Positions 5,701 to 37,292 of a stretch of 64,000 bases of DNA are shown here, piece by piece. Under the pieces are notes generated by a model. That model was not told the DNA's origin. It searched no databases and worked only from the letters and a program-made list of their open reading frames with translations. Made by a program: the position numbers and the translations under genes. The stretch is from Mycobacteriales bacterium (GTDB lineage Bacteria > Actinomycetota > Actinomycetes > Mycobacteriales > JACQDL01), in the NCBI GenBank assembly GCA_035476575.1, contig DATILL010000065.1, forward strand, positions 49,149 through 113,148, in the 5' to 3' direction. The first letter of the stretch is position 1; each line of letters begins with the position of its first letter.

Positions 5701-8005
5701 CTACACCCATACTCGACACCCCCAGGACGCCGTCGAGGCGCTGACCGCCGCCGTCGACGGCTACCGCCAGATCGCCGAGACACACCCGCACGCCGTCCAT
5801 GCCGGCCTGCGCGCGGCCACCGCGGCACTCGACCACGCCCAGGCGCCCGGCACCGGCGCAACCGCCCACCCGGACCGCGCCCGAACGCAGGTCCGCTACG
5901 CCCGCCGCTGGCACGAAGAGGCCATCCGCTACCCGCTGCCCGGCATCATCATCGTTCTCGGCTGGCGGACCGACCTGGCCGCGCGCCAGCCCCGCCAGCG
6001 CACGGTCCGCGACGATCTCGTCGCGCTGGTCTTCGATCGCAAGCGTGCCGCCACAGCCGCCGAGGCCACCAGCACTGAAGAAGCCGCCACCGGCGTACCG
6101 GCCGCGCCGGCCAGCGCAGCCACCGGGGCGCTGTCCGGCATCGCCAACCGCGTCTCCCAGCTCACCGGAACCCTGACGGCCCGCGTCGCCAGCTCTCGCC
6201 TCCTGTCCCCACTGGTTGCCAACAGCAACATCACCCAGCTTGGCAAGGTCGTCGGCCTCGCCACCGCCCTCACCGCCCTGGTCGCCGGCGTCATCGTCGT
6301 GGCACCCGGCCACCATCCGGCGCCCGCGCCATCCACCGACGTGGCCCAGTCGACCCCAAATCCCACCTTCCCCCCCGGCCCGGGTCAGACCGGCGGGCCG
6401 CTCGTCCCCGGCTCTACGTCGAGCAACGGCTCCACGTCTGGGACCGGCTCTACGTCGAGCAACGGCCCTGGTGTTACGTCGAGCAATGGGGCCGGCTCCA
6501 GCCCCTCAAGCGGCTCTAGCGTTTCAAACCCCGATATTATTAATACACCCTGCGGGCAGAACCAGCACGCCGTTGCCGTTCCCCATGACCCTAGTCCGGC
6601 GACGATGTCCCTATCGAACCCGAACGTCGTGTCGCCCTCGAACCACGGCGTCTCGACGTGGGCAATGTCCCGCGTTGCTCGTATGGAAGCTGTCAGTTTG
6701 ACTGCCCCGACATTCGCCATCCGCATCGACGCCACGCGTCTAGTCTACCGACGCTTCTTCATCCCTGGGGTGACCTCCCACGTGTGGGTGGATTCCCGAT
6801 TGGTACAAACATTACAGCTTGCGCCCGGCTCATATCCGTTCCAGTTTGCTTCTGGCTACTTCGCCGACTTCAGGTTCACGGTGACCCAGGCTGGAAAGAT
6901 CGACTACGACTCCCGTTTCAATAGTTTCCTGTCCGGAACGGGTACCTCCACACTCACTATCTCGGGCTTCTTGGTGACCCTGGATGCCCGTCATCTGTCG
7001 GGCCTTGGCGTCCTGCTCGCTCACATGCCAGCCCAGGGCTGGATCACCTACACGCAGGTTCGCATGGTTCCCGCCTCGCACTACGATGTGCAGAGCCCAG
7101 GTGGCATCGCGAGCTTTTCATTCAAGCTGGGACTCGACGGGCGGTTCTCGTACGGCTCTTCTCTGGACGTGAGAAGCGGTGGAGTCCTTAAAGGAAACGG
7201 GACCTCCTCGTTGGAAATCGTCGGTTATCCTATCCGTATCGACGCCTCACGCCTATCTTATCGGTACTTCCTTATCCCTAACATAACGCTCAAATTCATA
7301 GACGCTCAGACGATACCCACCCTGCAGGTCCTGCCAGGCTCATACGCGTTTCAGTTTGCTTCCGGCTACTTCGCCGACTTCAGGTTCACGGTGACCCAGG
7401 CCGGACTGATTGACTACGACTCCCGCTTCGCGGGTTTCCTCAGTGCGTATAGGTCCACACTTACTGTCACCGGCTTATCGGTGACCCTGGACGCTCGGCG
7501 CCTGTCGGGCCTTGGCATTCTGCTCGCTCACATGCCAGCCCAGGGCTGGATCACCTACGAGCAGGTTCGCATGCTCCCCGCCTCGCACTACTCTGTCCAG
7601 CAAGGCTCGGGCGAGGTCACGAGCTTTATCTTCAAGTTGGGGCTTGATGGAAGGTTCTCGTACGACTCTTCTCTGGACGCCAACAGCGGCGGGTTCCTCA
7701 AAGGAAACGGAACCTCCACCCTAGAATTTCTCGGCTACCCGCTATGTGTTGACGCACGGTCCGCCGGAGGAGCAGGGGTCACCGTCGAGCCAATCCGGGG
7801 AATGCCGTTCAGTACCACGCACGTCCAGCTTGCCTACCTGCTCCCTGCGCCGTACTTCAGACTCAGGTTCAATCCTGGCCATGCTCCGTTCTCCCTCGCA
7901 CCGAATGGCACCTTCAGCTTCGATAGCGCTCTGTCACCCTACTTGCGTCTGGAGAAGCGCGGCGGCATAACTGTGCTCACGGTTCTCGCGCCACCCCCTG
8001 CTTGA
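2747..8005 (+). CDS. NLR-like STAND NTPase (P-loop NOD) with TPR array, one TM helix, Ser/Gly/Thr linker and C-terminal tandem beta-rich repeats (1752 aa)
   Basis: The N-terminal motif SQVAVGDRNVVGDGNVV spans 2804-2854. Walker A is GLGGQGKTQLAG (about 3085-3110) and Walker B-like is LLVVDYAEN. About ten TPR_10/12-like units carry a recurring AAALTNLG..L...GR..EA pattern (about 4500-5800). A hydrophobic helix LGKVVGLATALTALVAGVIVVAP lies at about 6240-6305. An S/G/T-rich linker spans 6400-6530, and five roughly 85-aa repeat units run from 6712 to 8005. Confidence 0.85.
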   Translation: MTGPRGSDPGPASSLVISGSQVAVGDRNVVGDGNVVVDRFVFEGWAHVSEPTTRDEAAGMLLCPPPRPASDALPGGWLRPEAGVITPWRRPEAEDLVQWCVGKPTGLLRLVHGLGGQGKTQLAGQVCAELRQRGWLAGFVELPAPGGGEVPAVGRGAGLPISAWSHRQSEIMTAVRALPKLGVSALLVVDYAENHAAAVGMLLREAVRAATAPTASTPPRILLLSRGEVDWLDDHPCRGWVHPEPILLGPLPGSLWEAGGEFAELDAAEVVAQVWTKAVTQFAAHVESGPLTTTAEPGALAAAALATGTPTSFLTTLDLYADALLRVLDRAQQLAGPAEAGASRPGGDPISGILAHERRVVAQAFAAAGVDLDGYERDRAVCVAFLRPAADSTSAADALATLPGLRALPAGQRDRVVGVLARLFPSDGGENVWEAPRPDRLTDTHLLRVAQAARSGKDFDDYVVAVCGGDDRQLAGHTARTLLRALSTPGAAVWYPVGLRRVEGSITALARAHPGGYVPALVALDPVRFEDEILDTLDVRRTAAGSQPLPIEPVEDIDSELRRIGATTSRLRIAVAVSRRLVEATRPAGTAEDDPVEVARHADQLVGLSRRLAEAGSLGEAVGPAREAVKWYRPLFDGDPETYRQALAAAVTNLGSRLADDGAPAAALAAAEEAVTLRRELAETGSHEHQVDLASALHNLGLRLWDAEEVDRAVAPAGEAVTLLRALAAADPAEQARLAVVLTSLAQIHAATGSPVQAVAAAREAVAIMRRLAEANPDGYLPGLAAALVALSAHLSPPAGRPRMSRPVREAVRLAAEAVETCRQLAVVNPLAYEPDLAAALTNLGLRYATAGQATEAVTATEQAVDIRRRLAGHDSNRHRADLAASLSNVALQVGSTRRRADALAPAREAVEVYGQLQEELPSARSDLAAALTNLGYLLAATGRDDEAIAPTAQAVATYQQLLADQPQLVQRIYLAEAQYNLGLHYTHTRHPQDAVEALTAAVDGYRQIAETHPHAVHAGLRAATAALDHAQAPGTGATAHPDRARTQVRYARRWHEEAIRYPLPGIIIVLGWRTDLAARQPRQRTVRDDLVALVFDRKRAATAAEATSTEEAATGVPAAPASAATGALSGIANRVSQLTGTLTARVASSRLLSPLVANSNITQLGKVVGLATALTALVAGVIVVAPGHHPAPAPSTDVAQSTPNPTFPPGPGQTGGPLVPGSTSSNGSTSGTGSTSSNGPGVTSSNGAGSSPSSGSSVSNPDIINTPCGQNQHAVAVPHDPSPATMSLSNPNVVSPSNHGVSTWAMSRVARMEAVSLTAPTFAIRIDATRLVYRRFFIPGVTSHVWVDSRLVQTLQLAPGSYPFQFASGYFADFRFTVTQAGKIDYDSRFNSFLSGTGTSTLTISGFLVTLDARHLSGLGVLLAHMPAQGWITYTQVRMVPASHYDVQSPGGIASFSFKLGLDGRFSYGSSLDVRSGGVLKGNGTSSLEIVGYPIRIDASRLSYRYFLIPNITLKFIDAQTIPTLQVLPGSYAFQFASGYFADFRFTVTQAGLIDYDSRFAGFLSAYRSTLTVTGLSVTLDARRLSGLGILLAHMPAQGWITYEQVRMLPASHYSVQQGSGEVTSFIFKLGLDGRFSYDSSLDANSGGFLKGNGTSTLEFLGYPLCVDARSAGGAGVTVEPIRGMPFSTTHVQLAYLLPAPYFRLRFNPGHAPFSLAPNGTFSFDSALSPYLRLEKRGGITVLTVLAPPPA
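6712..7745 (+). repeat. Intragenic tandem duplication (about 510 bp / 170 aa, two copies, each made of two roughly 85-aa sub-units; a fifth divergent unit follows to 8005)
   Basis: The string cagtttgcttc(t/c)ggctacttcgccgacttcaggttcacggtgacccagg occurs at 6842 and at 7352, an offset of 510. The protein blocks FAIRIDATRL..TLTISG/FLVTLDARHLSG..SLEIVG repeat as YPIRIDASRL..TLTVTG/LSVTLDARRLSG..TLEFLG. The region is visibly AT-richer than its surroundings. Confidence 0.9.
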
Positions 8006-8339
8006 CCCAGGCCGGTCCAACTCTCAGCCCCGATTCTGCGGTAGCGTCAAAGTTAGTATTCGCATTATTAGATAATCTCGCGGCGAGGTTAGCTCTATGT
8101 GGCAAGTCAGATCCCGCTGGTGGCGAGTTCGGGTGTTCCGGGTGCGCGGTATCTGTGGGGGAGTGATGGTCAAGGCACGGTGGCAGGCACCCCGCGGATC
8201 AACAGCCGGATCCGCAGACCCGCAGTTCGAGCAGTAGGAAGCTGCCGGTTCATTCATTGGAGCTGGCTGCGACGTGGTAACTTCGTCGGCGGTCCCTCTA
8301 AACCGGCCAGGAGCTGTGCGCCAGACCCCACTATGTGGT

Positions 8340-9452
8340 CTACGCGGCGGGTAGCTGCCAAATGTGGTCAGTGTCGAGCCGGACGAGCTGCTGGTCGTGG
8401 CGGATAGTGAGCAGGTAGGCGTCGTAGCTGGGTTTGCCGAGGTGCTCCCATTCGGAGTGGGCGGCCTCGACCTCGTCCCAGAGCCGGCGTGGGCCGTTCT
8501 GGGTGACGGTGCCGGCGGGGGTGATATGGGCGCGCGAACCGTCAGGGTGGCTGAGGTACAGGTCGGCCAGGTCGTTTCCGCCGTTGGCGTAGCTCAGGCT
8601 GGGCAGCGCGATCGAGAGGTGGAAGCGAAACGGTCCGTCGTACACGGCGGTGCTGGGCAGGTTCGCCTGACGGGATGGGCCGGCGGGCTCGGCCGGCGAG
8701 TGAGGGGCCGGCCCGGGCCGAGTGGCCGCCGTCCCGCGCAGTGGCATGAAGTATGCCCCGGACAGGAACCGGCCGGCGGCGCGGTCACCGTCGACCTCCA
8801 GCAGGGCCAGGCCGCTGGCGATGGGCGCGAGTATCTTCCCGCCGGGCCGAGTCTGCGCGAGCCATGCGGGCGGGACGCGGGTCAGGCCGCAGGTGGCGAG
8901 GATCCGGTCGTACGGCGCGCGAGCTGGGTAGCCGTTGGCGCCGTTGCCGCTGCCAATGAGCGGGTGGTAGCCAGCCGCTGCTAGCCGCTTTCGCGCAGCG
9001 GTGCAGAGGCCGGGGTCGATGTCGATGCTGGTGACGAGGTGGTCGCCGAGGCGATGGCAGAGCAGCGCGGCGGTGTAGCCGGTACCGGTGCCGACCTGCA
9101 GCACCCGGTGCCCGTCGGCTACGTCCAGGTCGTGCAGCATCGCGGCGACCAGGGATGGCATGGTGCCGGAGGAGGTGACGCTGGCGGGGGTGATCTGGGT
9201 GATCAGCGTGCTGTCGCGGTAGACCGCGGCCAGCCACTCCTGCCGATCCTCCACTCGCGTGCTGTCGACCAGACGATAGCCGGGCTGAGCGTAGAATCGC
9301 GGGACAAGCAGGTGCCGTGGTACCGCGGTGAAGGCCGCCTGCCACGCGGGGTCGGGCAGCGACCCATCAGCGACGAGCTCGGTGACCAGCGCCTTCCTCA
9401 GTTCTGCCGCCAGCTCTGTCGCGTCACGCGGTTGTGCGGCTGGACCGTTCAC
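8340..9452 (-). CDS. RiPP-associated O-methyltransferase, protein-L-isoaspartate O-methyltransferase (PIMT) homologue with a C-terminal extension
   Basis: A PIMT-like N-terminal half (AFTAVPRHLLVPRFY) and a SAM-binding GxGxG motif (VLQVGTGTGYTAALL) are present. The preferred start, GTG 9452, overlaps the ATP-grasp stop (GTGA). The tracked ORF begins further upstream, at 9524. Confidence 0.8.
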   Translation of the reverse strand: MNGPAAQPRDATELAAELRKALVTELVADGSLPDPAWQAAFTAVPRHLLVPRFYAQPGYRLVDSTRVEDRQEWLAAVYRDSTLITQITPASVTSSGTMPSLVAAMLHDLDVADGHRVLQVGTGTGYTAALLCHRLGDHLVTSIDIDPGLCTAARKRLAAAGYHPLIGSGNGANGYPARAPYDRILATCGLTRVPPAWLAQTRPGGKILAPIASGLALLEVDGDRAAGRFLSGAYFMPLRGTAATRPGPAPHSPAEPAGPSRQANLPSTAVYDGPFRFHLSIALPSLSYANGGNDLADLYLSHPDGSRAHITPAGTVTQNGPRRLWDEVEAAHSEWEHLGKPSYDAYLLTIRHDQQLVRLDTDHIWQLPAA

Positions 9453-10444
9453 GGCTGTTCCATGAGCAGGTCGGCGATCGACGCGGAGATCGGTATGCCA
9501 GTCCGGTATTCCAACCAGGCCCACTGCCCGGCCGGGTTCACGTCCACCAGCAGATGCCGGCCGGTGCCTTTCTCGACCACAAAGTCCAGTGTGGCGAAGT
9601 GCAGCCCGAGGTGCTTGAGCAGCCGTGCGACGCCGAGCGACTCCGGCTCGGGCAGCTCGCCGATGCGGTAGTCCAGGTCGGCGTAGTGAGCTCGCCAGTC
9701 CAACAGGTCCCGACCGGTGGCCGAGCGGATCTCAACCGCGAACATCTGCCGACCGACGACGGTCACCCGCAGGTCATGGTCTTTGTCGATGAGCTGCTGG
9801 AAGCAATGCCCGGTAGCTCGTATTCCGGGATCTTCCCAGCGCCCGGTAGGGACCTCGGTGACGTACACGACTCTGCTCGGCCGCCCGTGCTTGTCACGGA
9901 GACCGCGTCCGTCCAACGGCTTGTACACGATCCGGCCGCCCACCTCCGCGGCAAACGGCGGCACATCCTCGGGCCGGTTGGTGATCAAAGTGGGCGGCAC
10001 GACCAGACCGCAAGCGCGAGCGGCCGCCAGGTTGACCGGCTTGGACTCAGCCCCTTCCACCGCGGCAGGGTCGTTGACCAGGCGAACAGGTAACGACCGC
10101 AGGACTCCCCACAGCGCGTGACGACCCTGCCGCGCGCACCATTGTCGCTGCTCGGCGGGCAGCGCCTCGGCCGGCCGGACGTCACCGGCTCGGCGCCAGT
10201 ACACCGATCGGAGTCGGGTCAGGTCGACCTCCCGGAGGCCCCACATCGACCCAGACCAACCCTCACCCTTCTCGGCGGCGCCCAAGGTGGCGGTCAGGGA
10301 CAGCCCTGCTGGGAAGTGCGCGCCGTCGATGCGTGCGAAGCTCACCCCCCGCTCCAACAGATGCCGGATGACGTGGTCTGCGGTCGGGTCGACATCGGCG
10401 GTGACAACCAGGACGCGAGGGCTGTCGGGCATGGGTGACGTCAC
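9449..10444 (-). CDS. ATP-grasp ribosomal peptide maturase (graspetide omega-ester/amide ligase)
   Basis: 331-aa ORF with ATP-grasp-type motifs (IVYKPL, FQQLIDKDHDLRVTVVG, LDFVVEKGTGRHLLVDVNPAGQW). It lies between a small precursor ORF and the methyltransferase. The start could be GTG 10444 or ATG 10432. Confidence 0.8.
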   Translation of the reverse strand: MTSPMPDSPRVLVVTADVDPTADHVIRHLLERGVSFARIDGAHFPAGLSLTATLGAAEKGEGWSGSMWGLREVDLTRLRSVYWRRAGDVRPAEALPAEQRQWCARQGRHALWGVLRSLPVRLVNDPAAVEGAESKPVNLAAARACGLVVPPTLITNRPEDVPPFAAEVGGRIVYKPLDGRGLRDKHGRPSRVVYVTEVPTGRWEDPGIRATGHCFQQLIDKDHDLRVTVVGRQMFAVEIRSATGRDLLDWRAHYADLDYRIGELPEPESLGVARLLKHLGLHFATLDFVVEKGTGRHLLVDVNPAGQWAWLEYRTGIPISASIADLLMEQP

Positions 10445-10450
10445 GTTGCC

Positions 10451-10699
10451 TTAGTCGTGCGCGGGGTCGGTGTCGACGGCGAGTGGGTCCTTGCCGTCGG
10501 GGTTGGTTTGCGCGGTGCAGGTCGCCACCATCGGCGCGACCTCGTGTAGCGGCCGACCATCCGGCAACACCGCGATCTGCTGGTCCGGGCAGAGGAAGGC
10601 GGCGGACAACACGGACCCATCAGGGTCGGCTGGGACCGGCAGCGCGAACACCAACCCCAACGGCGGACAAGGCTGCACATCGACGGTTATCGGATCCAT
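10451..10699 (-). CDS. Graspetide precursor peptide (82 aa); predicted core ..ATCTAQTNPDGKDPLAVDTDPAHD
   Basis: ATG 10699 is preceded by GGAGAGGAG. The Thr- and Asp-rich C-terminus surrounds an Asp-Gly dipeptide. The gene sits 6 nt upstream of the ATP-grasp gene. The 268-aa tracked ORF (to 11257) is treated as an upstream read-through artefact. Confidence 0.7.
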   Translation of the reverse strand: MDPITVDVQPCPPLGLVFALPVPADPDGSVLSAAFLCPDQQIAVLPDGRPLHEVAPMVATCTAQTNPDGKDPLAVDTDPAHD

Positions 10700-22920: not shown

Positions 22921-24018
22921 ATGCCTGCCACCCACATCGCCCGGCGGGACCGGCTGCGGGAGATCCTCCGCGAACGCGGGCTGGACGCCGCCCTGGTCAC
23001 CAACCTGGTCAACGTCCGCTACCTCACCGGTTTCACCGGCACCAACGCCGCCCTCCTGGTGTACGCCGACGGCCCGGGCGCCGACCCGGGCGTGTTCGGC
23101 ACCGACGGCCGGTATGACGCCCAGTCGGCCGAGCAGGTGCCGGAGCTGCCCCGGGTGCTCCAGCGGGCCACCGACCAGGCCATGGCCGCCCGAGCCGCCG
23201 CCGACGGCCACCACACGGTCGGCTACGAGTCGCACCACGTCACCGTGGACGGCCTCGCCGAGCTGCGGGCCGCCGCCGAGCAGCTCCGGCTCGCCACCCT
23301 CAACCAAGCGGTCGAGCAGCTCCGGCTGACCAAGGACAACGCCGAGATCGAGCTGCTCCGGCGGGCCTGCGCGATCGCCGACCAGGCCCTGGCCGGGCTC
23401 ATCGAGGCCGGCGGGCTGCGGCCCGGCCGGACGGAGCGCCAGGTCGGCCGCGACCTGGACGGCCGGATGCTGGACCTCGGCGCGCACGCCGTCAGCTTCG
23501 AGACGATCGTGGCCACCGGGCCGAGCTCCGCCATCCCGCACCACCGCCCGGACGACCGTGAGCTGGCCGCGGGCGACCTCGTCAAGCTGGACTTCGGCGC
23601 GCAGTACGGTGGCTACCACTCCGACATGACCCGCACGATGGTCCTCGGCGAGCCGGCCGGCTGGCAGCGCGAGATCTACGAGCTGGTGGCCGCGGCGCAG
23701 CGGGCCGGCAGCGCCGCCGTGGCCGTCGGTGCGGACGTGCGGGAGGTGGACCGGGCCGCCCGCGAGGTGATCGAGCGGGCCGGGTACGGCGAGCGGTTCA
23801 GCCACGGGCTGGGGCACGGGGTGGGGCTGGAGATCCACGAGGCACCGGCGTTGTCCCCTCTCGGCGCCGGTACACTCGCCGAGGCGACGCCGCTCACCGT
23901 CGAGCCCGGTGTGTACCTGCCCGGCCGCGGCGGCGTCCGCATTGAGGACACGCTCGTGGTCCGCGCCGACGGGCCCGAGCTGCTCACCCTCACCACCAAG
24001 GATCTCGTCAGCCTGTAA
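22921..24018 (+). CDS. pepP: Xaa-Pro aminopeptidase (M24 family)
   Basis: The protein starts MPATHIARRDRLREIL. The metal-ligand block SHGLGHGVGLEIHEAP is present. It sits in conserved synteny with efp and nusB. Confidence 0.85.
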   Translation: MPATHIARRDRLREILRERGLDAALVTNLVNVRYLTGFTGTNAALLVYADGPGADPGVFGTDGRYDAQSAEQVPELPRVLQRATDQAMAARAAADGHHTVGYESHHVTVDGLAELRAAAEQLRLATLNQAVEQLRLTKDNAEIELLRRACAIADQALAGLIEAGGLRPGRTERQVGRDLDGRMLDLGAHAVSFETIVATGPSSAIPHHRPDDRELAAGDLVKLDFGAQYGGYHSDMTRTMVLGEPAGWQREIYELVAAAQRAGSAAVAVGADVREVDRAAREVIERAGYGERFSHGLGHGVGLEIHEAPALSPLGAGTLAEATPLTVEPGVYLPGRGGVRIEDTLVVRADGPELLTLTTKDLVSL

Positions 24019-24033
24019 CAGCGAAGGACACCC

Positions 24034-24597
24034 GTGGCCACCACGAACGACCTGAAGAACGGCCTGGTGCTCAACCTCGACGGCAACCTGTGGTCCGTCG
24101 TGGGGTTCCAGCACGTCAAGCCCGGCAAGGGCGGCGCCTTCGTCCGGACCACCCTGAAGAACGTGCTGACCGGCAAGGTCGTGGACCGCACCTTCAACGC
24201 CGGGGTCAAGGTCGACACCGCCACCGTGGACAAGCGCAACATGACGTACCTGTACCGCGAGGGTACCGACTTCGTGCTCATGGACGCCGAGACCTATGAC
24301 CAGATCCACGTCCCGGTCGAGACGGTGGGCACCGCGGCCGACTACCTGCTGGAGAACGCCGACGCCGTGGTCGGCCTGCACGAGGGTGTCCCGCTCTACG
24401 TCGAGCTGCCCACCAGCGTGGAGCTGGTCGTCGAGTACACCGAGCCCGGCCTGCAGGGTGACCGGTCCACCGGCGGCACCAAGCCGGCCCGGCTGGAGAC
24501 CGGCGCGGAGATCGCCGTCCCGCTGTTCATCACCACCGGCGAGAAGGTGAAGGTCGACACCCGCGATGGCCGCTATCTCGGCCGTATCTCGCAGTGA
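24034..24597 (+). CDS. efp: Elongation factor P
   Basis: [33 protein letters not shown]; 187 aa. Confidence 0.95.
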
Positions 24598-25001
24598 CGG
24601 CGCGGAGCACGGCACGCAAACGGGCGCTGGACGTCCTGTACGAGACCGACCTGCGCGGCACCAGCGCGGTGGACACGGTAGCCGAGCGGATCGCCGTCGC
24701 CGACCCGCCGGTGCCGGAGTACGCCGTGACCCTGGTCGAGGGCGTCGCCGGCCACCGGGCCCGCATCGACGAGATCATCGCGTCCTACGCTGAGGGCTGG
24801 ACGATCGACCGGATGCCCACGGTGGACCGCAACATCCTGCGGATCGGGGTGTACGAGCTGCTCTGGTGCGACGACGTGCCGGACGCGGTGGCCGTGGACG
24901 AGGCAATCGAGCTGGCCAAGGCGCTGTCCACCGGCGACTCGCCCCGGTTTGTCAACGGCCTGCTCGGTCGCATCATCCGTAGTCGCCCGGTGGTCAGCTA
25001 G
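24594..25001 (+). CDS. nusB: Transcription antitermination factor NusB
   Basis: 135-aa ORF with [10 protein letters not shown] and [20 protein letters not shown] motifs. Its start overlaps the efp stop. Confidence 0.9.
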
Positions 25002-25010
25002 CCCTCCCAG

Positions 25011-25080
25011 CTCCGACGATCATCGACCTGTGGTCGCTTGTTGATCTCCAGCCGCGACCACAGCTCGATGATCGTCGGAG
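25011..25080. repeat. Dispersed hairpin element, copy A (70 nt)
   Basis: CTCCGACGATCATCGAcCTGTGGTCGC-ttGTTGATCTCCAgcc-GCGACCACAGcTCGATGATCGTCGGAG. The 27-bp arms have one mismatch. It lies in the intergenic region between nusB and bldD. Confidence 0.85.
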
Positions 25081-25135
25081 AGGGGCGCGGCGGAGAGGGG
25101 CGCGGTCAGGCCGGAGGGCAGCTACCGGAGGGCAG

Positions 25136-25636
25136 CTAGGAGAGGCTGTCGCTGCCGACGGTCCGGGCGTCGGGGGAGAGCACCCCCCACTCGATCAGCC
25201 GGTCGGTCAGCTCGCCGGCCGACTGGTCGTAGATGATCGCCAGCGAGCGCAGGTCCTCGGCCCGGATGGACAGCACCTTCCCGTTGTAGTCGCCGCGCTG
25301 GCTCTGGATGGCGGCCGCGTAGCGGGCCAGCGGGCCGACCTGCTCGGCCGGCAGCCGGCCCAGGGTCTCCAGGTCGAGCACGATCCGGGTGGCTGGCTCG
25401 CCCCCGGCCGGTGGCCGGCCCTCGGGCAGCAGCTCGCTGACCGGCACGCCGTAGAACTCGGCGAGCTCGGCCAGCTTCTGGACGGTGACCGCGCGGTCGC
25501 CCCGTTCGTAGGATCCGACGACGACCGCCTTCCACCGGCCCTGAGATTTCTTCTCCACGCCGTGCAAGGACAGTCCCTGCTGGGTGCGGATCGCCCGTAG
25601 GCGCGCGCCTAGGGCCTTGGCGTAGTCGCTCGTCAT
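25136..25636 (-). CDS. bldD: Developmental master regulator BldD (XRE-type HTH, c-di-GMP-binding C-terminal domain)
   Basis: The N-terminus MTSDYAKALGARLRAIRTQQGLSLHGVEKKSQGRWKAVVVGSYERGDRAVTV closely matches Streptomyces BldD. The bipartite RGD-x8-RAED motif (QRGDYNGKVLSIRAED) is present. Confidence 0.9.
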   Translation of the reverse strand: MTSDYAKALGARLRAIRTQQGLSLHGVEKKSQGRWKAVVVGSYERGDRAVTVQKLAELAEFYGVPVSELLPEGRPPAGGEPATRIVLDLETLGRLPAEQVGPLARYAAAIQSQRGDYNGKVLSIRAEDLRSLAIIYDQSAGELTDRLIEWGVLSPDARTVGSDSLS

Positions 25637-25825
25637 GTAGCTCGCTCCGTTGCTCCCGTGTCCGGCCCAGGGCCGGTGCTGACCCCATCAGTCACCGGGT
25701 TTGTGTAGGTGACTACAGAGAGTAACCGTATACAGAGAGTGAACTCCAGGTCAAGCAAAACCACCCAACTTGGGTAGTGGCGTTGCCCGAAGGCGCATCT
25801 TGCTACCGTAGTGCCCGCGAAAGAC

Positions 25826-25861
25826 GTCCTTTAAGCCCGTCCCGTGAGGCGGGGAAGGGAG
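25826..25861 (+). promoter_or_regulatory. Candidate PyrR-binding RNA hairpin overlapping the pyrR ribosome-binding site
   Basis: The sequence is GUCCUUUAAGCCCGUCCCGUGAGGCGGGGAAGGGAG. Outer pairing is CCUUU/AAGGG and inner pairing is CCCG/CGGG. The loop UCCCGUGAGG resembles the UCC.G.GAGG PyrR loop. The 3' arm contains the RBS, 8 nt before ATG 25869. Confidence 0.55.
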
Positions 25862-25868
25862 TCACAAT

Positions 25869-26507
25869 ATGACACTGCCGCCGTACGCCGCAGCAAATCG
25901 GCATGACCCAGCGGCGCGGACGCTACTCGATGCATCCGGCCTGGCGCGTGTCGTCGACCGGATCGCGCACCAGGTCCTGGAGAAGACCGAAGGTGCCGGC
26001 GACACGGTCCTGCTCGGGGTCCCGACCCGCGGCGTCCCGCTGGCCGGCCGGCTCGCTGCCCGGATCGCGGCGTTCGAGGGCCTGGCCATCCCGACCGGCT
26101 CGCTCGACATCACCCTGTACCGCGACGACCTGCGGCTGCGCGGGGTCCGGGCGCTGGAGGAGACCGCGGTGCCGCCCGGCGGCGTCGACGGCAAGCTGGT
26201 CGTGCTGGTCGACGACGTGCTCTGCTCCGGCCGCACCGTGCGGGCCGCGCTGGACGCGCTGCGGGACCTGGGGCGGCCACGGGCGGTGCAGCTCGCCGTG
26301 CTGGTCGATCGGGGCCACCGGGAGCTGCCGATCCGGGCCGACTACGTCGGCAAGAACGTTCCCACCGCCACCTACGAGAAGGTCTGGGTCCGGCTGTCCG
26401 AGGTGGACGGCGCCGACGCCGTGCTGATCGGGTCCATCAGACCTGCCGGTCCGGCCAGGTCGGCTAGGCCGGCCAGGCCGGCTAGGCCCGACGGAGAGAC
26501 CAGGTGA
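25869..26507 (+). CDS. pyrR: Bifunctional pyrimidine operon regulator / uracil phosphoribosyltransferase PyrR
   Basis: The PRTase motif [13 protein letters not shown] is present. The C-terminal tail contains an ARPARPARP repeat from a 2 x 18-bp tandem duplication at 26461-26496. Confidence 0.9.
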
Positions 26508-27436
26508 ACCGGCACCTGCTCTCCGCCGCGGACCTGTCCCGGGCCGACGCCCTGCTGGTGCTCGACACCGCGGAGCAGATGGACCACGCGCTGGCCGGCC
26601 GCGAGGTGAAGAAGCTGCCGACGCTGCGCGGCCGGACCGTGGTCAACCTCTTCCTGGAGGACTCCACCCGTACCCGCACCTCCTTCGAGCTGGCCGCCAA
26701 GCGGCTGTCCGCGGACGTCATCAACTTCTCCACCAAGGGCTCCAGCGTCTCCAAGGGCGAGTCGCTGAAGGACACGGCGCTGACCCTGGAGGCGATGGGT
26801 GCGGACGCGGTGGTGATCCGGCACGGGCTGTCCGGTGCGCCACACCGGCTGGCGGGCTGGGTGGCCGGCAGCGTGCTGAACGCCGGGGACGGCACCCACG
26901 AGCACCCCACCCAGGCGCTGCTGGACGCGTTCACCATGCGCCGGCGGCTCGGCCGTATGGACGGCCTGCGGGTAGCCATCGTCGGTGACGTGCTGCACTC
27001 CCGGGTGGCCCGGTCCAACGTGCTGCTGCTGGCCACGCTGGGCGCCGAGGTGACCCTGGTGGCGCCACCTACGCTGCTCCCGGTCGGGGTGGAGGCCTGG
27101 TCGGCCAGCGTCTCCTACGAGCTGGACGCCGTGTTGCCCAAGGTGGATGTGTGCATGATGCTGCGGGTGCAGCGGGAGCGGATGAGCTCCTCGTACTTTC
27201 CCAGCGCGCGCGAGTACAGCCGGCGGTACGGGCTCGACGCACACCGGATGGCGCTGCTGCCCGAGCACGCCGTGGTGATGCACCCCGGTCCGATGAACCG
27301 CGGCATGGAGATCGCCGCCGAGGTCGCCGACCACCTGACCCGGTCCACCGTTGTCGAGCAGGTCAGCAACGGCGTGAGCGTCCGGATGGCCGTCCTCTAC
27401 CTGCTGCTGGCCGGACGGTCGGAGGAGCTGGCATGA
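26504..27436 (+). CDS. pyrB: Aspartate carbamoyltransferase catalytic subunit
   Basis: [17 protein letters not shown] and HPGPMNRG motifs are present. The GTG start overlaps the pyrR stop. Confidence 0.95.
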
Positions 27437-28731
27437 CCCGCCAGCCGGTGTGGCTGGTCACCGGGGTTCGCCCGTACGGTGAGGCGCCGGTCGACCTGGT
27501 GCTGCGCGGCGGCGTGATCGCCGAGGCCGGGCCGGGCCTGTCCGCGGCCGGCGCGACCGTCCTGGCCGCCGACGGGCTGATCGCCCTGCCCGGCCTGGTC
27601 GACCTGCACACCCACCTGCGCGAGCCCGGCCGGGAGGACGCCGAGACCGTCGAGACCGGCACCCGGGCGGCTGCCCTCGGCGGGTACACGGCCGTGTTCG
27701 CGATGGCCAACACCGAGCCGGTCGCCGACACCGCGGGCGTGGTGGAGCAGGTCTGGCGGCTCGGGCGGCAGGCCGGGCTGGCCGACGTGCAGCCGGTCGG
27801 CGCGGTCACCGTCGGGCTGGCCGGCGCGCGGCTGGCCGAGCTGGGCGCGATGGCCGACTCCGCGGCCCGGGTGCGGGTCTTCTCCGACGACGGGCACTGC
27901 GTGGCCGACCCGGCCCTGATGCGGCGGGCGCTGGAGTACGTCAAGGCGTTCGGCGGGGTGGTCGCCCAGCACGCCGAGGAGCCGCGGCTGACCGAAGGCG
28001 CCCAGCTCAACGAGGGGGTGATGTCCGCCCAGCTCGGCCTGGTCGGCTGGCCGGCCGCGGCGGAGGAGGCGATCATCGCCCGGGACGCGCTGCTGGCTGG
28101 GCACGTCGGCTCCCGGCTGCACGTCTGCCATGTGTCCACCGCCGGCTCGGTGGAGATCCTGCGCTGGGCCAAGGCAAAGGGCGTACGGGTCACCGCCGAG
28201 GTCACCCCGCACCACCTGCTGCTCACCGATGACCTGGCCGCCGGCTACGACCCGGTCTTCAAGGTCAACCCGCCGCTGCGCACCGCCGAGGACGTGGCCG
28301 CGCTGCGCGCCGGGCTGGCCGACGGCACCATCGACTGCGTCGCGACCGACCACGCCCCGCACGCACTGGAGGACAAGGAGACCGAGTGGGGCGCTGCCCG
28401 GCCGGGCATGCTTGGCCTGGAGACGGCGCTGTCGGTGCTGGTCGAGACGATGGTGGAGCCTGGCCTGCTGGGCTGGCGCGGCCTGGCGCAACGGATGAGC
28501 ACGGTGCCGGCTCGGCTCGGCGGTCTCGACGGGCATGGCCACGAGCTGGTCGAGGGGGCGGCGGCAAACCTGGTGCTGCTCGACCCGGCCGCCCGCCGGG
28601 TGGTCGACCCGGCCGGGCTGGCCAGCCGCAGCCGGAACACGCCCTACGCTGGCCGTGAGCTGCCCGCTCGGGTGCTGGCCACGTTCCTGCGTGGCGAGCC
28701 GACGGTCCTCGACGGCAAGGCCCAGAGATGA
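27433..28731 (+). CDS. pyrC: Dihydroorotase
   Basis: The ATGA overlap with pyrB is present. Motifs are [13 protein letters not shown] and ATDHAPH. Confidence 0.9.
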
Positions 28732-28786
28732 CCGGCCCAGAGATGACCGGCCCAGAAGTGACTCGCACGCACGTGACGGAGGCCTG

Positions 28787-29938
28787 ATGGCGCTGCTGGT
28801 GCTGGAAGACGGCCGCACCTTCCGCGGCACGGCGTACGGCGTGGTGGGCGAGACGTTCGGCGAGGCGGTCTTCGCCACCGGCATGACCGGGTACCAGGAG
28901 ACGCTGACCGACCCGTCGTACCACCGGCAGGTGGTGGTGCAGACCGCGCCGCACATCGGCAACACCGGTGTCAACGACGAGGACCCGGAGTCGGCCCGGA
29001 TCTGGGTGGCCGGCTACGTGGTCCGCGACCCGGCCCGCCGGGCGTCGTCCTGGCGGGCGGTCCGGTCGCTGGCGGAGGAGCTTGCCACCTACGGCGTGGT
29101 CGGCATCGCCGGCGTCGACACCCGAGCGCTGACCCGGCACCTGCGCGAGCGCGGCGCGATGCGGGTCGGGCTGGCCAGCGATGCCGAGACGGAGTCCGAC
29201 GCCGCGGCGCTGCGTGAGCGGGTGCTGGCCAGCCCGCCGATGGAGGGTGCCGACCTGACCGGTGAGGTCACCACCGCGGCGCCGTACGTCGTGCCGGCGG
29301 TGGGGCAGCGGCGGCACCGGGTGGCCGCGCTGGACCTCGGCATCAAGGCGATGACACCGCGCCGGATGGCCGAGCGCGGCATCGAGGTGCACGTGCTGCC
29401 GGCGTCGTCCACGGTGGACGACCTGCTCGCGGTTGACCCGGACGGCGTGTTCCTGTCCAACGGCCCGGGCGACCCGGCCACCGCGGGCCGCGCGGTCGGG
29501 CTGACCCGGGCGGTGCTGGACCGGGGCATCCCGCTGTTCGGCATCTGCTTCGGCAACCAGGTGCTCGGCCGGGCGCTCGGCTTCGGCACCTACAAGCTGA
29601 GGTACGGCCACCGCGGCATCAACCAGCCGGTCCAGGACCGCGCCACCGGCCGGGTCGAGGTGACCGCGCACAACCACGGCTTCGCCGTCGACGCGCCGAC
29701 CGGTGGCGGCGGTGTCGGTGGCGGCGGCGGTGTCGGCGGCGACGGCGGCCCCACCGACACGCCGTACGGCCGGGTTGAGGTCAGCCATGTCTGCCTGAAC
29801 GACGGCGTGGTCGAGGGCCTGCGCTGCTTGGACCGGCCGGCGTTCTCGGTCCAGTACCATCCCGAGGCGGCGGCCGGCCCACACGACGCCGCCCACCTGT
29901 TCGACCGCTTCGCCGACCTCATGGCGGCCAGCCGATGA
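28787..29938 (+). CDS. carA: Carbamoyl-phosphate synthase small (glutaminase) subunit
   Basis: The protein starts [14 protein letters not shown]. GATase motifs GICFGNQ and HNHGF are present. A Gly-rich low-complexity insert ([16 protein letters not shown]) lies at about 29702-29750. Confidence 0.9.
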
Positions 29939-31162
29939 CCACCCAGACACCCACCCGGCTGCACCAGCTCCGCGTCCGAAACTTCCGGGTCCTGCGCGAC
30001 GTCGAGCTCCGGCTGTCCCCGCTGAGCGTCTTCCTCGGGCCGAACGGCAGCGGGAAGTCCACGCTGCTCGACGTGTTCGCCCTCATCCAGGATGCGGCCA
30101 GCAGCAACCTGGAGGACGCATGGTACCGCGCCGGCCGGATGGCGAACCTGCGAAGTCGCCAGTCCTCCGGACCGGTCGAGATCGACCTCACCTACAGCGA
30201 CGAAGGCACGGCTGGCAGACCGGTCCGCTACCACCTGGCCGTTGACGAGGTCGACGGCGCACCGAGGGTCGCGCGGGAGCTCCTGCAGTGGTTCCACGAC
30301 GGCACCACTCCCGAGCATGTGCTCGACTTCCGTGACGGCAAAGGCATCGCGCGGGACGACGAGACCATGTTGCCTCGGAAAGAGGCTCTCTCGGCCGGCA
30401 GTCTCGCGTTGTCGGTCTTCGGCCAGCAAGACCGCTATGGCAGCGTGCAACGCACCATGCATTCGCTGCGCGACTGGCATGTGTCGCTGTTCAGCGCGGA
30501 GCGAGCGCGGGAGACGGCGACGGCGGGACCACAGCGCCGGCTCGCTTCCGACGGCCGCAACCTGTCGAATGTGCTCCAGCACCTGGCCGAGCGGCACCCT
30601 GACGACCTCCGCGAGATCGTTGCCGCACTGCGTCGGCAGGTTCCGCGGACCGCGGGGACCGACACAGAGGTGCTGCCCGACGACCGGCTGCTCCTCCACC
30701 TCCAGGATGAGCCGTTCGACAGCCCGGTTCTCTCGCGGTTCGTCTCCGAAGGCACCGTGAAGCTGCTGGCCTACCTCATCCTCCTGCACGGCAACCCGCC
30801 GCCCGGACTGCTCGGCATCGAGGAGCCCGACAACCAGCTTCACTCCCGGCTGATCTACGGCCTCGCCGAAGAGATGCGCATCGCGGCGGGCCGCAGCCAG
30901 CTCGTCGTCACCACGCATTCGCCGTACCTGGTCGACGCGTTGCGCCCGGAAGAGCTGTGGACTCTCTACCGCGCTGACGACGGGTACGCACGTGCGGTAC
31001 GGGCGGCGGACGTCCCCCGGCTCATGGCGCAGCTCAGGGCCGGGGGCTCTCTCGGCGACCTGTGGATGGCGGGCTACTTCGACGTCGGCGACCCGCTGAC
31101 GCGGGGTGGGCGACCGCGGGGTCGAGTCGACGGGCTGCGTCGCCTCGTGGGTGAGGAGTCCA

Positions 31163-31170
<8 letters not shown>
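29935..31170 (+). CDS. ABC/SMC-like AAA_21-type ATPase of unknown function, inserted between carA and carB
   Basis: Walker A is GPNGSGKST. An [10 protein letters not shown] segment and a signature-like [14 protein letters not shown] are present. Walker B is [12 protein letters not shown] and the H-loop is [11 protein letters not shown]. The ATG overlaps the carA stop (ATGA), and the 3' end overlaps the carB ATG by 8 nt. Confidence 0.8.
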
Positions 31171-34530
<3,360 letters not shown>

Positions 34531-34531
<1 letters not shown>

Positions 34532-35586
34532 TGCTCTACCGGCGGGTGCTGCGGCCGGCACTGTTCCGGCTCGGCGGCGGGGACGCGGAGACGGCGCACG
34601 AGTGGACGCTGCGCGGGCTGGCCTGGCTGGACCGGCAGCCGACGGCGCTGGCGGCGCTGCGGCGGCGGTACGGCGGTACGGCGCCGCGCACGGTGTTCGG
34701 GGTGCGGTTCGCCAACCCCGTCGGGCTGGCCGCCGGGATGGACAAGGACGGCCGGGCGCTGCGGGCCTGGCCGGCGCTGGGCTTCGGCTTCGTCGAGGTG
34801 GGCACCGTAACGGCCTGGCCGCAGCCGGGCAACCCGCGGCCGCGGGTGTTTCGGCTGCCGGCCAGCGAGGCGGTCATCAACCGGATGGGCTTCAACAACG
34901 CCGGCGCCGCGGCGCTGGCGGACCGGCTCGCGGGGTACGGGCGGCTGCCGGTGCCGCTCGGGATCAGCCTGGGCAAGTCCAGGGTCACCCCGCTGGACCA
35001 AGCGGTGGAGGACTACCTGGGCTCACTGGCCCGGCTCTACCCGTACGGCGACTACTTCGCGGTGAACGTCAGCTCGCCGAACACGCCCGGGCTGCGGGCG
35101 TTGCAGGGCGCCGGCCACCTCGCCGAGCTGCTGGGGGCGCTGCGCGCGCACGGGCCGAAGCCGCTGCTGGTGAAGATCGCGCCGGACCTGGCCGAGCCGG
35201 ACCTGGCCGAGCTGCTCGCAGCCTGCGCGGCGCATGGCGTGGACGGCGTTATCGCGACGAACACGACCACCAGCAGGCCGGGCCGGCTGGGCCTGCTGGC
35301 GGGCGGGCCGGCGAGCGAGGCGGGCGGGCTGTCCGGCCGGCCGCTGCGGGCGCTGGCCCTGGACGTGGTGCGGTTCGTCGCCCGGGAGACGGGCGGCTCG
35401 CTGCCGATCATCGCGGTGGGCGGCATCCTCGACCCGGACGACGCCGCCCGGATGTTCGACGCGGGCGCCAGCCTGGTCCAGCTCTACACCGGCCTGGTGT
35501 ATCGCGGGCCGGGGCTGGTCCGGGCCATCAACCAGTCGGCGGCCAGCCGCCGCCCGTCCCGACGATCATCGACTTTTGGGGGTTAG
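34531..35586 (+). CDS. pyrD: Dihydroorotate dehydrogenase (quinone), class 2
   Basis: [10 protein letters not shown] and IAVGGI motifs are present. The start overlaps the carB stop. The last codons and the stop lie inside hairpin element copy B. Confidence 0.9.
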
Positions 35587-35625
35587 TTGATCTCCAATCA
35601 CCCCAACAACTCGATGATCGACGGG
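35558..35625. repeat. Dispersed hairpin element, copy B
   Basis: CCCGaCGATCATCGAcTTTTGGGGG-TTAGTTGATCTCCAAT-CACCCCAACAAcTCGATGATCGaCGGG. The ends and loop match copy A, but the inner stem differs while remaining complementary. Confidence 0.8.
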
Positions 35626-36465
35626 AGCTTTGGGGCCAGTTTTGGGGCCAGGCTGCTGGGCCGGCTGGCCGAGCGCGGAGCGCTGTGCGTGGGCATCGAC
35701 CCGCATCCCGGCCTGCTGCGCGACTGGGGGCTGGCCGACGACCTTGCCGGGCTAGCGGCGTTCACCCGTACGGCGGTCGACGCGCTGGCCGACCGGGTCG
35801 CCGTGCTCAAGCCCCAGTCGGCCTTCTTCGAACGGCACGGCTCCCGCGGCATCGCCGTGCTGGAGCGGGTCATCGCCGACGCCCGGGCCGCCGGCGCGCT
35901 GGTGCTCCTCGACGCCAAGCGCGGCGACATCGGCAGCACCGTCGCGGCCTACGCCGCTGCCTACCTCGACCCGGCCAGCCCGCTGTGCGCCGACGCGGTG
36001 ACCGCCAGCCCCTACCTCGGCTTCGGCTCGCTGGCGCCCATGGTGGACGCCGCGCTGGCCGGCGGCGGCGGCGTGTTCGTGCTCGCGCTGACCTCCAACC
36101 CAGAGGGCGGCGCGGTGCAGCGGGCTGTCGGCGGCGACGGCCGGACGGTCGCCCAGTCCATGGTGGACGGTGCCGCGGCGGTGAACGCGGGCGCCGACCC
36201 GATCGGCTCGGTCGGCGTGGTGGTCGGCGCGACGGTGGGGGAGCACGGGCTCGACCTGGCCAGGCTGCACGGCCCAGTGCTGGTACCCGGGCTCGGCGCC
36301 CAGGGCGGTACGGCGGCCGACGTGGGCCGGCTGTTCGGCCCGACGGCCCGCGCCGTCGTACCCAGCATGTCGCGGGAGATCCTCCGGCATGGGCCCGACC
36401 CCGCCGCGCTGCGCGCCGCGGCCACCCGGGCCACCGACGAGCTCCGCACCGTGCTGGCCGGCTGA
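35614..36465 (+). CDS. pyrF: Orotidine 5'-phosphate decarboxylase (type 2)
   Basis: The LDAKRGDIGST motif is present. ATG 35614 is preferred over the tracked TTG 35587, which lies in the hairpin loop. Confidence 0.85.
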   Translation: MIDGSFGASFGARLLGRLAERGALCVGIDPHPGLLRDWGLADDLAGLAAFTRTAVDALADRVAVLKPQSAFFERHGSRGIAVLERVIADARAAGALVLLDAKRGDIGSTVAAYAAAYLDPASPLCADAVTASPYLGFGSLAPMVDAALAGGGGVFVLALTSNPEGGAVQRAVGGDGRTVAQSMVDGAAAVNAGADPIGSVGVVVGATVGEHGLDLARLHGPVLVPGLGAQGGTAADVGRLFGPTARAVVPSMSREILRHGPDPAALRAAATRATDELRTVLAG

Positions 36466-36497
36466 CGGCGGCGGGGCTAGCCAGCACAGCGGGCCGC

Positions 36498-37292
36498 TCA
36501 GGCCGCCAGGCTGACCAGCGCCGACCAGCCGAACGCCAGGACGGTGAACGCCACCGCCATGCCGGCCGCCGCCAGCCCGGCCGCGCGCCAGCCCACCCTG
36601 GCCTGCCCGCCCGGCGCCTGCTCCGGTGGCATGACGTGCAGCACCAAGGCGATTCCGCCGCCGTACACCGGCACCGCGTAGCAGAACAGCAGCAGCGCGG
36701 TCAGCCAGTGCTGCTGCCACAGCGCCACCGGCAGCGCGAACCGCTGCGCCGCGACGGAGCCGAGCCCGCCGAGCAGCCAGAAGACGTGCGGCGGGGTTAG
36801 CGCGTAGTGCCGCCAGGCAAACCAGACCGCGACCAGCAGGCCGAGCCACGGGCCCAGCTCACGGGCGACGGTGAGCCGCGGGTCGTCCGGCCCGAACAGC
36901 CCGAACCCGCTCCCGGCGGCCACCGCCAGGGTGACCAGCGGCACCCCGGCCACCAGGTAGGTGACCGGCGCCGGCAGCCGCGGCCAGCGCAGCGCCCGGC
37001 GCAGCGGCTCACGGCGCCGGAGCACGGCGAACCACAGCCCGGCCAGCAGCAGCGGCGAGAGCGCCAGCCGCAGGGGACCGGGCAGCCAGCCGGGCACCCG
37101 ACCGACCCGCCGGTCGTCCAGCCAGAGCACCACCGTGGCCAGCACGAACGCCGTCCAGAACATCCGGTGCGCGATGAGCTGGCCCCTGGTCACCGGCCGG
37201 GTGACCCGCCCAGAGCCGTCGCCGCCGGCGATCGTCGCCAGGATGCCCGGTAACCGCGCCCCCGCCAGCCTTGGCCGCCGCCTGTCGTCCAC
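36498..37292 (-). CDS. Polytopic integral membrane protein, function unknown
   Basis: 264-aa ORF with about seven hydrophobic segments. No motif was recognised. Confidence 0.5.
   Translation of the reverse strand: MDDRRRPRLAGARLPGILATIAGGDGSGRVTRPVTRGQLIAHRMFWTAFVLATVVLWLDDRRVGRVPGWLPGPLRLALSPLLLAGLWFAVLRRREPLRRALRWPRLPAPVTYLVAGVPLVTLAVAAGSGFGLFGPDDPRLTVARELGPWLGLLVAVWFAWRHYALTPPHVFWLLGGLGSVAAQRFALPVALWQQHWLTALLLFCYAVPVYGGGIALVLHVMPPEQAPGGQARVGWRAAGLAAAGMAVAFTVLAFGWSALVSLAA

Follow-up and report, generated by a model that had tools for sequence, protein, structure and literature searches.

The 64,000-nucleotide stretch of DNA analysed here, referred to throughout as the window, covers positions 49,149 to 113,148 of contig DATILL010000065.1 (assembly GCA_035476575.1), and carries a group of pyrimidine biosynthesis genes in which those for the two subunits of carbamoyl-phosphate synthase (CPSase) are separated by an ATPase gene. 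The small-subunit gene carA (28787..29938, forward strand) ends ...AGC CGA TGA, and is followed by a gene for a 411-residue ATPase (29935..31170, forward strand), assigned to the ABC type (AAA_21/AAA_15) and the HEC-01A family through Pfam, PADLOC, and AlphaFold2, and then by the large-subunit gene carB (31163..34531, forward strand). The ATG start codon of the ATPase is the ATG of cgATGA at the carA stop, an overlap of 4 nt. At its other end, the TAG stop codon (31168-31170) lies just beyond the ATG of carB (31163-31165; ccaATGccTAGg), an overlap of 8 nt which places the start of carB within the ATPase open reading frame (ORF). The Shine-Dalgarno sequence of carB, GGTGAGGAG, occupies positions 31150-31158. 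A first-pass annotation of this DNA had reported a defence-type ABC/AAA_21 ATPase at this position along with both overlaps, and these can be read directly from the sequence. It had also described the gene as 'translationally spliced' between its neighbours, which is loose wording, as overlapping stop and start codons amount to coupling rather than splicing.

The surrounding genes are similarly compact. Overlaps of 4 nt each join pyrR to pyrB and pyrB to pyrC, carB and pyrD overlap by 1 nt (TGATG, 34529-34533), and pyrD and pyrF abut. A promoter scan found no promoter-like sites between positions 25000 and 37000, and the only two terminator-like sites in this interval both lie upstream of pyrR, a number no greater than expected by chance. 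Given this tight packing, and as no promoter- or terminator-like sites occur inside it, the series pyrR-pyrB-pyrC-carA-ATPase-carB-pyrD-pyrF reads as a single operon. The ATPase gene is, as had been suspected, less GC-rich than its neighbours, with a GC fraction of 0.690 and a third-codon-position value (GC3) of 0.862, against 0.71-0.76 and 0.89-0.98, respectively, for the remaining genes of the operon.

The encoded protein carries, in order, the motifs that define membership of the ABC-type (SMC/Rad50/OLD-like) ATPases. These comprise a Walker A or P-loop (GPNGSGKST, residues 35-43; 30037..30063, forward strand, as for all motifs here), a Q-loop (residues 163-164), an ABC signature-like motif (S-E-G-T-V-K, residues 271-276; 30745..30762), Walker B (residues 292-297) with the adjoining D-loop (together residues 292-303; 30808..30843), and an H-loop (TTHSP, residues 326-330; 30910..30924). 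The signature-like motif was located in an alignment of homologues, while Walker A, Walker B with its D-loop, and the H-loop were read from the sequence. In the same alignment the Walker A columns are invariant, as are S271, G273, and K276 of the signature-like motif (T274 being nearly so), G294, E296, P298, N300, L302, and H303 of the Walker B and D-loop region, and T326, H328, S329, and P330 of the H-loop. Pfam families AAA_21 (5.5e-30, full length) and AAA_15 (1.3e-18) match the protein, with AAA_23, SMC_N, and DUF2813 matching its N-terminus, such that all four families suggested in the first-pass annotation (AAA_21, AAA_15, AAA_23, and DUF2813) were recovered. Among PADLOC models, HEC-01A (PDLC04182) matches at 5.5e-119, aligning residues 8-386 with profile positions 3-404 of 406, and the matches to AriA, AbiLi, mad3, PtuA, and GajA are far weaker. 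No NCBIfam model matches at its cut-off.

A confident AlphaFold2 model of the ATPase built from 18 homologues (predicted local distance difference test score, pLDDT, 84.9) was compared to solved structures with Foldseek. The closest folds were those of PtuA from Septu and from the retrons Ec78 and Ec83, Rad50, SMC heads, and the Thermus OLD nuclease 6p74. The nearest of these show template-modelling (TM) scores of approximately 0.5 at 12-16% identity, with Foldseek E-values near 1e-13 for the PtuA chains. The kinship to OLD, PARIS, Septu, and Gabija-type NTPases proposed earlier is correct. The protein thus belongs among the ABC-type ATPases of the AAA_15/21 radiation, which is associated with defence, and has no close solved relative. 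Its membership of a catalogued candidate family is clear, and its NCBI record already bears the name 'AAA family ATPase'. The nucleotide-binding subunit of an ABC transporter was considered and rejected, as ABC_tran reaches 20.9 bits where its Pfam cut-off is 25, over the P-loop only, and no permease gene is adjacent. A labelling matter in PADLOC may be recorded here: PDLC04143 (labelled HEC-01A, 190 positions) matches the DUF4276 proteins introduced below, and PDLC04144 (labelled HEC-01B, 395 positions) matches the window's ATPase at 4.7e-84, such that the A and B labels of these two models are swapped relative to other HEC-01 models.

Related loci place the ATPase in a two-gene context. We inspected 11 actinobacterial loci, a convenience sample drawn from the hit list, in part according to the length of the contigs, and comprising Amycolatopsis, Pseudonocardia, and Pseudonocardiaceae-like metagenome contigs; in all 11, an ATPase homologue directly follows carA. 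Seven of them display the order carA-ATPase-DUF4276-carB (L001, L003, L025/L026, L027, L028, L109, and L110), with a DUF4276 gene of approximately 210 codons immediately downstream of the ATPase in L001, L003, L025-L027, L028, and L110, and a shortened one in L109. The ATPase of L001 is 86% identical to that of the window and that of L003, from Amycolatopsis cihanbeyliensis, 51%; L025 and L026 derive from metagenome-assembled genomes (MAGs) of Pseudonocardia. In L002 (75%) a short contig ends inside DUF4276, and the loci of P0004, P0008, and P0011, whose downstream gene is not readable, count for the adjacency of carA and ATPase only. The flanking genes are likewise related: the window's carA is 79-85% identical to that of L001 and 67-69% to that of L003, depending on whether tblastn or a MAFFT alignment is used, its carB is 85% and 76% identical to theirs, and the carA homologues of these relatives match the Pfam families CPSase_sm_chain and GATase. 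At these car-embedded loci, adjoining genes share 1-17 nt, and carB has its ribosome-binding site and start codon within the 3' end of DUF4276, whose encoded tail (FRDGLRRL..) is kept in all car-embedded copies.

DUF4276 has been assigned to the Toprim superfamily, with a catalytic Glu and a DxD motif, and is homologous to Mad4 (PMC12065111). In our alignment of DUF4276 proteins these features correspond to the motifs EILVEE and VLVDRD. PADLOC HEC-01B matches the partners in L001 (1.5e-78) and L003 (8.2e-85). HEC-01 itself has been described as an ABC ATPase combined with a TOPRIM protein bearing an OLD-like metal site, embedded in Hma systems (bioRxiv 10.1101/2024.01.29.577857).

The window lacks this second gene, and alignment of its DNA with L001 indicates how it was lost. 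The two are collinear on both sides of a gap of 593 nt in L001 coordinates (9198-9790), and the window resumes at DUF4276 codon 197. At the resulting junction (31128..31129, forward strand), ATPase codon 398 is joined to former DUF4276/Toprim codon 197, the final few ATPase codons and DUF4276 codons 1-196 having been removed. As the missing length is 593 nt, the tail of DUF4276 was shifted into the ATPase frame, and the last 13 codons of this HEC-01B gene plus a stop codon (31129..31170, forward strand) now form the C-terminus of the ATPase, with 11 of 13 residues identical to the DUF4276 tail of L001. The surviving 42 nt contain both the Shine-Dalgarno sequence and the start codon of carB, which kept its native initiation region because the deletion spared the 3' end of DUF4276. 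No DUF4276 occurs elsewhere in the 64-kb window, leaving this 13-codon tail as its sole trace; of the two genes called for by the PADLOC definition of HEC-01, HEC-01A is present and the adjacent HEC-01B is reduced to those 13 codons. The earlier statement that no nuclease partner is present therefore stands for the 64 kb. What it missed is that a deletion accounts for this absence, and that the end of the ORF preserves the tail of the partner. Read from this comparison, the ATPase is the orphaned half of an ATPase-nuclease module, a candidate anti-phage system, the nuclease half of which was removed by a deletion of approximately 0.6 kb.

The deletion in the window has counterparts elsewhere. 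In L109 (6212-6664), an internal in-frame deletion of approximately 64 residues has eliminated the DxD region of DUF4276, and the remainder matches HEC-01B profile positions 84-201 together with a short N-terminal piece. In L009 (5971-7404), one of the loci from other phyla discussed below, a deletion runs across the C-terminus of the ATPase and DUF4276 residues 1-136. In all, the Toprim gene has been disabled independently at least three times (in the window, L109, and L009), each time with the ATPase ORF left standing, as would be expected if the Toprim protein were a costly or toxic effector. P0008 (417 residues) displays an internal gap of 15 residues and an odd C-terminal extension (..SVRELLF..), which may be another fusion.

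The orphan ATPase itself does not appear, from its sequence, to be decaying. Relative to L001, its ratio of non-synonymous to synonymous substitution rates (dN/dS) is 0.21. With L002 as outgroup, 13 synonymous and 10 non-synonymous changes were assigned to the window branch, and 32 and 11, respectively, to that of L001. Neutral drift would, as a rough estimate, yield some three non-synonymous changes per synonymous one. The window branch is far from such an excess, though perhaps slightly relaxed. Among 109 alignment columns, each at least 95% conserved in 127 homologues, the window departs at 10, and its sister P0002, which retains the Toprim gene, also departs at 10. These deviations are thus traits of the clade rather than marks of decay.

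The insertion between carA and carB is real, as had been claimed, but is not peculiar to this genome; it was seen throughout the loci sampled from Pseudonocardiaceae-type actinomycetes. The car-embedded ATPases form one clan relative to all homologues from other phyla in 200 of 200 neighbour-joining bootstraps, while a tree of DUF4276 alone recovers the actinobacterial clan in 44 of 200. For the ATPase, carA, and carB alike, the window groups with L001 and L003 groups with L027. This fits either a single old insertion which was then inherited or later exchange between related genomes, with recombination taking place in the conserved car flanks. Insertion mediated by a transposon or integrase was also considered, and was rejected as no repeats, tRNA genes, or recombinase were found at the site.

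The synteny comparison proposed in the first-pass annotation gave no sign of a universal housekeeping gene. A metagenome scan with the window's carA recovered 80 related carA loci (43-76% identity), none of which carries the ATPase or DUF4276, and the module has no housekeeping annotation. In 62 of the 66 module-free loci with a measurable junction, carA and carB are separated by less than 140 nt. One locus without the module, L041, has a carA 85% identical to that of module-bearing L025, an identity higher than that between L025 and the other carriers. In every locus, moreover, module GC3 (0.66-0.86) is below that of carA and carB (0.91-0.98). Given this patchy presence, the absence from L041, and the atypical GC3, the car-embedded module is accessory.

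Two further observations concern the carA-carB junction. In three module-free loci (L052, 5123-5238; L064, 2901-3013; L086, 963-1054) the spacer of 80-115 nt is a single open mini-ORF, which begins at the carA stop with ATGA or GTGA and ends with TAG or TAA 8 nt into carB. The peptide from L052, MIRAGTRLAQQ...YDGLDLDGARHA followed by a stop, faintly resembles the N-terminus of the ATPase and the DUF4276 tail. These mini-ORFs could be scars of near-complete module loss or could be chance features of GC-rich DNA, and are too short to call. In L102, L103, L106, and L108, from distant lineages where carA is approximately 44% identical to that of the window, other, unrelated inserts of some 0.5-1.2 kb separate carA from carB, with no match to the ATPase or DUF4276. 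The carA-carB junction may be a recurrent landing site.

Beyond the actinobacteria, homologues at 40-46% identity occur in cyanobacteria, Symbiobacteriaceae, Rhodothermales, Limisphaerales, Anaerolineae, Acetobacteraceae, and Gammaproteobacteria. Nine full-length loci (L004-L012) were taken for comparison from among the matches listed by a profile scan of genome contigs with the ATPase alignment; no actinobacterial locus was among those matches. DUF4276 lies directly downstream in eight of the nine (L004-L008 and L010-L012), the ninth, L009, retaining a fragment only, and neither carA nor carB is found nearby in any of the nine as fetched. Their surroundings are varied, and in three loci the host operon is likewise not an immune one. 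In L011, from the Anaerolineae, the module sits between two genes for dynamin-family GTPases (4135-9626). In L010, from the Acetobacteraceae, it follows oppA-oppB and precedes oppD-oppF (3453-10682), with oppC apparently missing. In L009 it adjoins a gene for an aspartate/ornithine carbamoyltransferase (4746-7404). A 48%-identical pair on plasmid pMtWR-220 of Meiothermus taiwanensis is nested in a type I restriction-modification operon, in the order hsdM-DUF262-hsdS-DUF4433-macro-ATPase-DUF4276-hsdR, beside DarT/DarG-like genes and a DUF262 gene. A TIR domain is fused to the N-terminus of ATPase homologues that are 47% identical. The plasmid setting and the TIR fusions, like the mad3 and mad4 deletions described below, associate the family with defence.

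Comparison with described systems places the intact module nearest to HEC-01. The window's ATPase is of the HEC-01A type and the partners in its relatives match HEC-01B at approximately 1e-80, and the Meiothermus pair, like the Hma- and MADS-embedded loci reported previously (bioRxiv 10.1101/2024.01.29.577857), sits inside another operon. The window differs in having the A gene alone with 13 codons of B, and in a host operon which is biosynthetic rather than immune. The MAD3/MAD4 genes of MADS, the methylation-associated defence system of Pseudomonas aeruginosa, likewise form an ATPase-DUF4276 pair nested in a larger operon, and mad3 is homologous to HEC-01A-type ATPases by profile match. Deletion of either mad3 or mad4 reduces phage resistance in MADS (bioRxiv 10.1101/2023.03.30.534895). 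This relationship is nonetheless distant, with NCBIfam MAD3 (NF047739) scoring 125 bits against a cut-off of 420, and PADLOC mad3 matching at 1.8e-21 as opposed to 5.5e-119 for HEC-01A. Nor are a methyltransferase or other MADS genes present, the neighbours of the ATPase being pyr and car genes.

PARIS similarly combines an ABC ATPase (AriA) with a separate Toprim nuclease (AriB), and DUF4276 is among the annotated partner domains in the AAA_15/21 ATPase tree of the PARIS study (PMC11464382). PADLOC AriA models match the window's ATPase in two partial stretches (3.9e-27 and 6.4e-22). The Toprim family of PARIS is, however, DUF4435 rather than DUF4276, and the window's ATPase is shorter, only weakly similar to solved AriA (1.7e-06), and has no AriB partner. 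An ABC head with Walker A, Q-loop, signature, Walker B, and H-loop is common to the window's ATPase, PtuA, the OLD nucleases, and GajA. For PtuA of Septu the likeness is structural, as the NCBIfam PtuA model gives 30.8 bits, its cut-off being 500, and the HNH nuclease which partners PtuA has no equivalent here. OLD nucleases of classes 1 and 2 and GajA carry a Toprim domain C-terminal to the ATPase on one polypeptide, whereas the window's protein ends approximately 70 residues after the H-loop and has no Toprim Pfam match; the PADLOC match to GajA is limited to its N-terminal 50 residues.

With respect to the position of the module, the first-pass annotation had reasoned from the adjacency of carA and carB in bacterial operons. 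That premise has known exceptions. In Pseudomonas aeruginosa and Xanthomonas citri, a co-transcribed ORF overlapping the carA stop gives the arrangement carA-orf-carB, the ORFs of the two genera being of unknown function and mutually dissimilar, and that of Xanthomonas 444 bp long (PMC4619228). These are short ORFs in comparison to a 411-residue ATPase, and the likeness is one of arrangement. This precedent was the only one found in our search of the literature for a module within the car genes. Three features were not described in the literature searched: residence of such a module inside an essential pyr/car operon across a lineage, inclusion of the sequence for carB initiation in the module's own 3' end, and repeated, constrained loss of the nuclease.

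Taken together, we consider it likely that an ATPase-nuclease module resembling OLD, PARIS, and Septu was embedded in this operon and that the window's ATPase is what remains of it after disarming. This remnant would be expressed along with the pyrimidine genes and probably provides no defence. By analogy to OLD, PARIS AriA/AriB, and Septu, the intact module may consist of an ATP-sandwich ABC ATPase oligomer which senses a trigger or restrains the nuclease, and of a Toprim partner which would act as a toxic effector by cutting nucleic acid. In the window, the ATPase alone would be made, co-translated with the CPSase subunits from the pyr operon mRNA, and with its effector gone it most likely has no defence activity of its own. 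It would still be transcribed and translated because ribosomes leaving carA must traverse its ORF to reach carB. That the ORF is intact may reflect a recent deletion, the cost of a premature stop which would uncouple translation of the essential carB, or some residual function of the ATPase.

Several points weigh against this interpretation. The defence role of the intact module is unproven and its mechanism is argued by analogy alone; indeed, HEC-01 protected E. coli from none of the phages tested (bioRxiv 10.1101/2024.01.29.577857). The strict position of the module behind carA could indicate a functional tie to the car genes. Purifying selection and the lack of motif loss fit a still-useful protein as well as they fit a recent deletion. 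Lastly, the window derives from a MAG, labelled 'Mycobacteriales bacterium' and the source of the exact protein.

Three other explanations were weighed. The ATPase may still be useful after losing its nuclease, for example as a sensor or binder of nucleic acid or of some phage protein, together with a nuclease encoded at another place in the genome, or as a decoy or regulator. We regard this as quite unlikely, although the protein departs from the conserved positions no more often than its sister with a Toprim gene, the substitution pattern is far from the neutral estimate, and the ORF is co-translated with an expressed operon. There is no partner in the 64 kb, and the selection signal amounts to 23 substitutions which cannot be dated relative to the deletion. 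The ORF could, furthermore, stay open merely for the sake of coupling to carB. A different possibility is that the whole module is a housekeeping accessory of CPSase or the pyrimidine operon, for example in processing of the polycistronic mRNA or in subunit stoichiometry. The invariable position behind carA with tight translational coupling, the agreement of ATPase groupings with those of carA and carB, and the carbamoyltransferase gene beside the L009 homologue would all suit such a role. It is rendered highly improbable by the 80 related carA loci devoid of the module, by the lack of it even where carA shares 85% identity with a carrier's, and by the unrelated settings occupied in other phyla (type I restriction-modification operon, pair of dynamin GTPase genes, opp operon). 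Furthermore, the GC3 of the module is atypical, its Toprim gene has proved dispensable in the window and L109, and no curated housekeeping family matches. That the ORF or its deletion is an assembly or binning artefact, a chimeric join in the MAG, is scarcely credible. Despite the reliance on a MAG, the identical 411-residue protein is recorded from NCBI, JGI, ENA, and Logan, the junction preserves the reading frame and is flanked on each side by DNA collinear with L001, and this architecture recurs across more than 10 independent assemblies.

A more far-reaching proposal, which we consider unlikely but worth stating, is that the module is an operon-embedding element, anchored in an essential operon and with its dose following PyrR and pyrimidine control. 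With the ribosome-binding site and start codon of carB inside the 3' end of the module, only deletions which spare carB could remove it, and those in the window and L109 are of this constrained kind. The level of an ATPase-nuclease regulated by nucleotides would, in addition, rise with a phage-induced drain on nucleotides. If true, this would constitute a new route by which an immune or selfish module attains both persistence and an expression signal linked to infection.

For the disarmed-remnant interpretation, the immediate interest lies in the location. Defence genes are usually sought in islands or hotspots between core genes, whereas the candidate here lies inside an essential, translationally coupled operon. 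As a candidate system resident across a group of antibiotic-producing actinomycetes, with a nuclease repeatedly lost and an ATPase ORF kept open, it offers natural material with which to ask whether HEC-01-type modules defend their native hosts, and the naturally disarmed alleles of the window, L109, and L009 may serve as built-in controls. It also provides a case in which to study the constraints that embedded genes and the expression of an essential downstream gene place on each other. For annotation, some caution is warranted: 'AAA family ATPase' here would denote a remnant, and defence finders which call for both genes pass over it.

Upstream of pyrR, a conserved leader (GTCCTTTAA..CCCGTCCCGTGAGGCGGGGAAGGGAG; 25822..25868, forward strand) forms a hairpin beside the ribosome-binding site. 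Its pattern, GTCCTTTAA..CCCGTCC.G.GAGGCGGGGAAGGAG, is near-invariant in the window and in L001, L003, L025, L027, L109, and L110, and a conserved CTGGTACCGT lies further upstream of the hairpin. Mycobacterial PyrR acts by translational repression, and on the basis of this mechanism the leader is probably a PyrR-responsive control element, that is, an actinobacterial site of translational repression by PyrR. An Rfam scan of 24000-37000 detected no PyrR element or other RNA apart from one chance match to a miRNA, and the window shows no enrichment of the PyrR box of Bacillus type, TCCAGAGAGG.

Minor features of the operon and its surroundings were also noted. Gene content differs somewhat among relatives: a gene with a bPH_11 domain lies between pyrC and carA in L003 (6375-6884) and L027 (4374-4883) and is absent from this position in the window (28732-28786) and L001, and pyrD lies between carB and pyrF in the window and L001 and is not there in L003 and L027. 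Three short tandem repeats occur in the window. A 9-bp unit repeated 4.2 times at the 3' end of pyrR (26451-26488) encodes part of the C-terminus of PyrR, a perfect 15-bp unit repeated 2.5 times (28719-28756) is found at the 55-nt spacer between pyrC and carA, and a GGC-rich 18-bp unit repeated 2.7 times within carA (29701-29748) yields a Gly-rich insert in CarA. Downstream of the operon, a hydrophobic ORF of 264 residues, encoded on the reverse strand (36498-37292), separates pyrF from the mIHF and gmk genes. No gene occupies its position in the syntenic loci L003 and L027, and in the window it explains a strong AT-skew excursion at 36400-37200.

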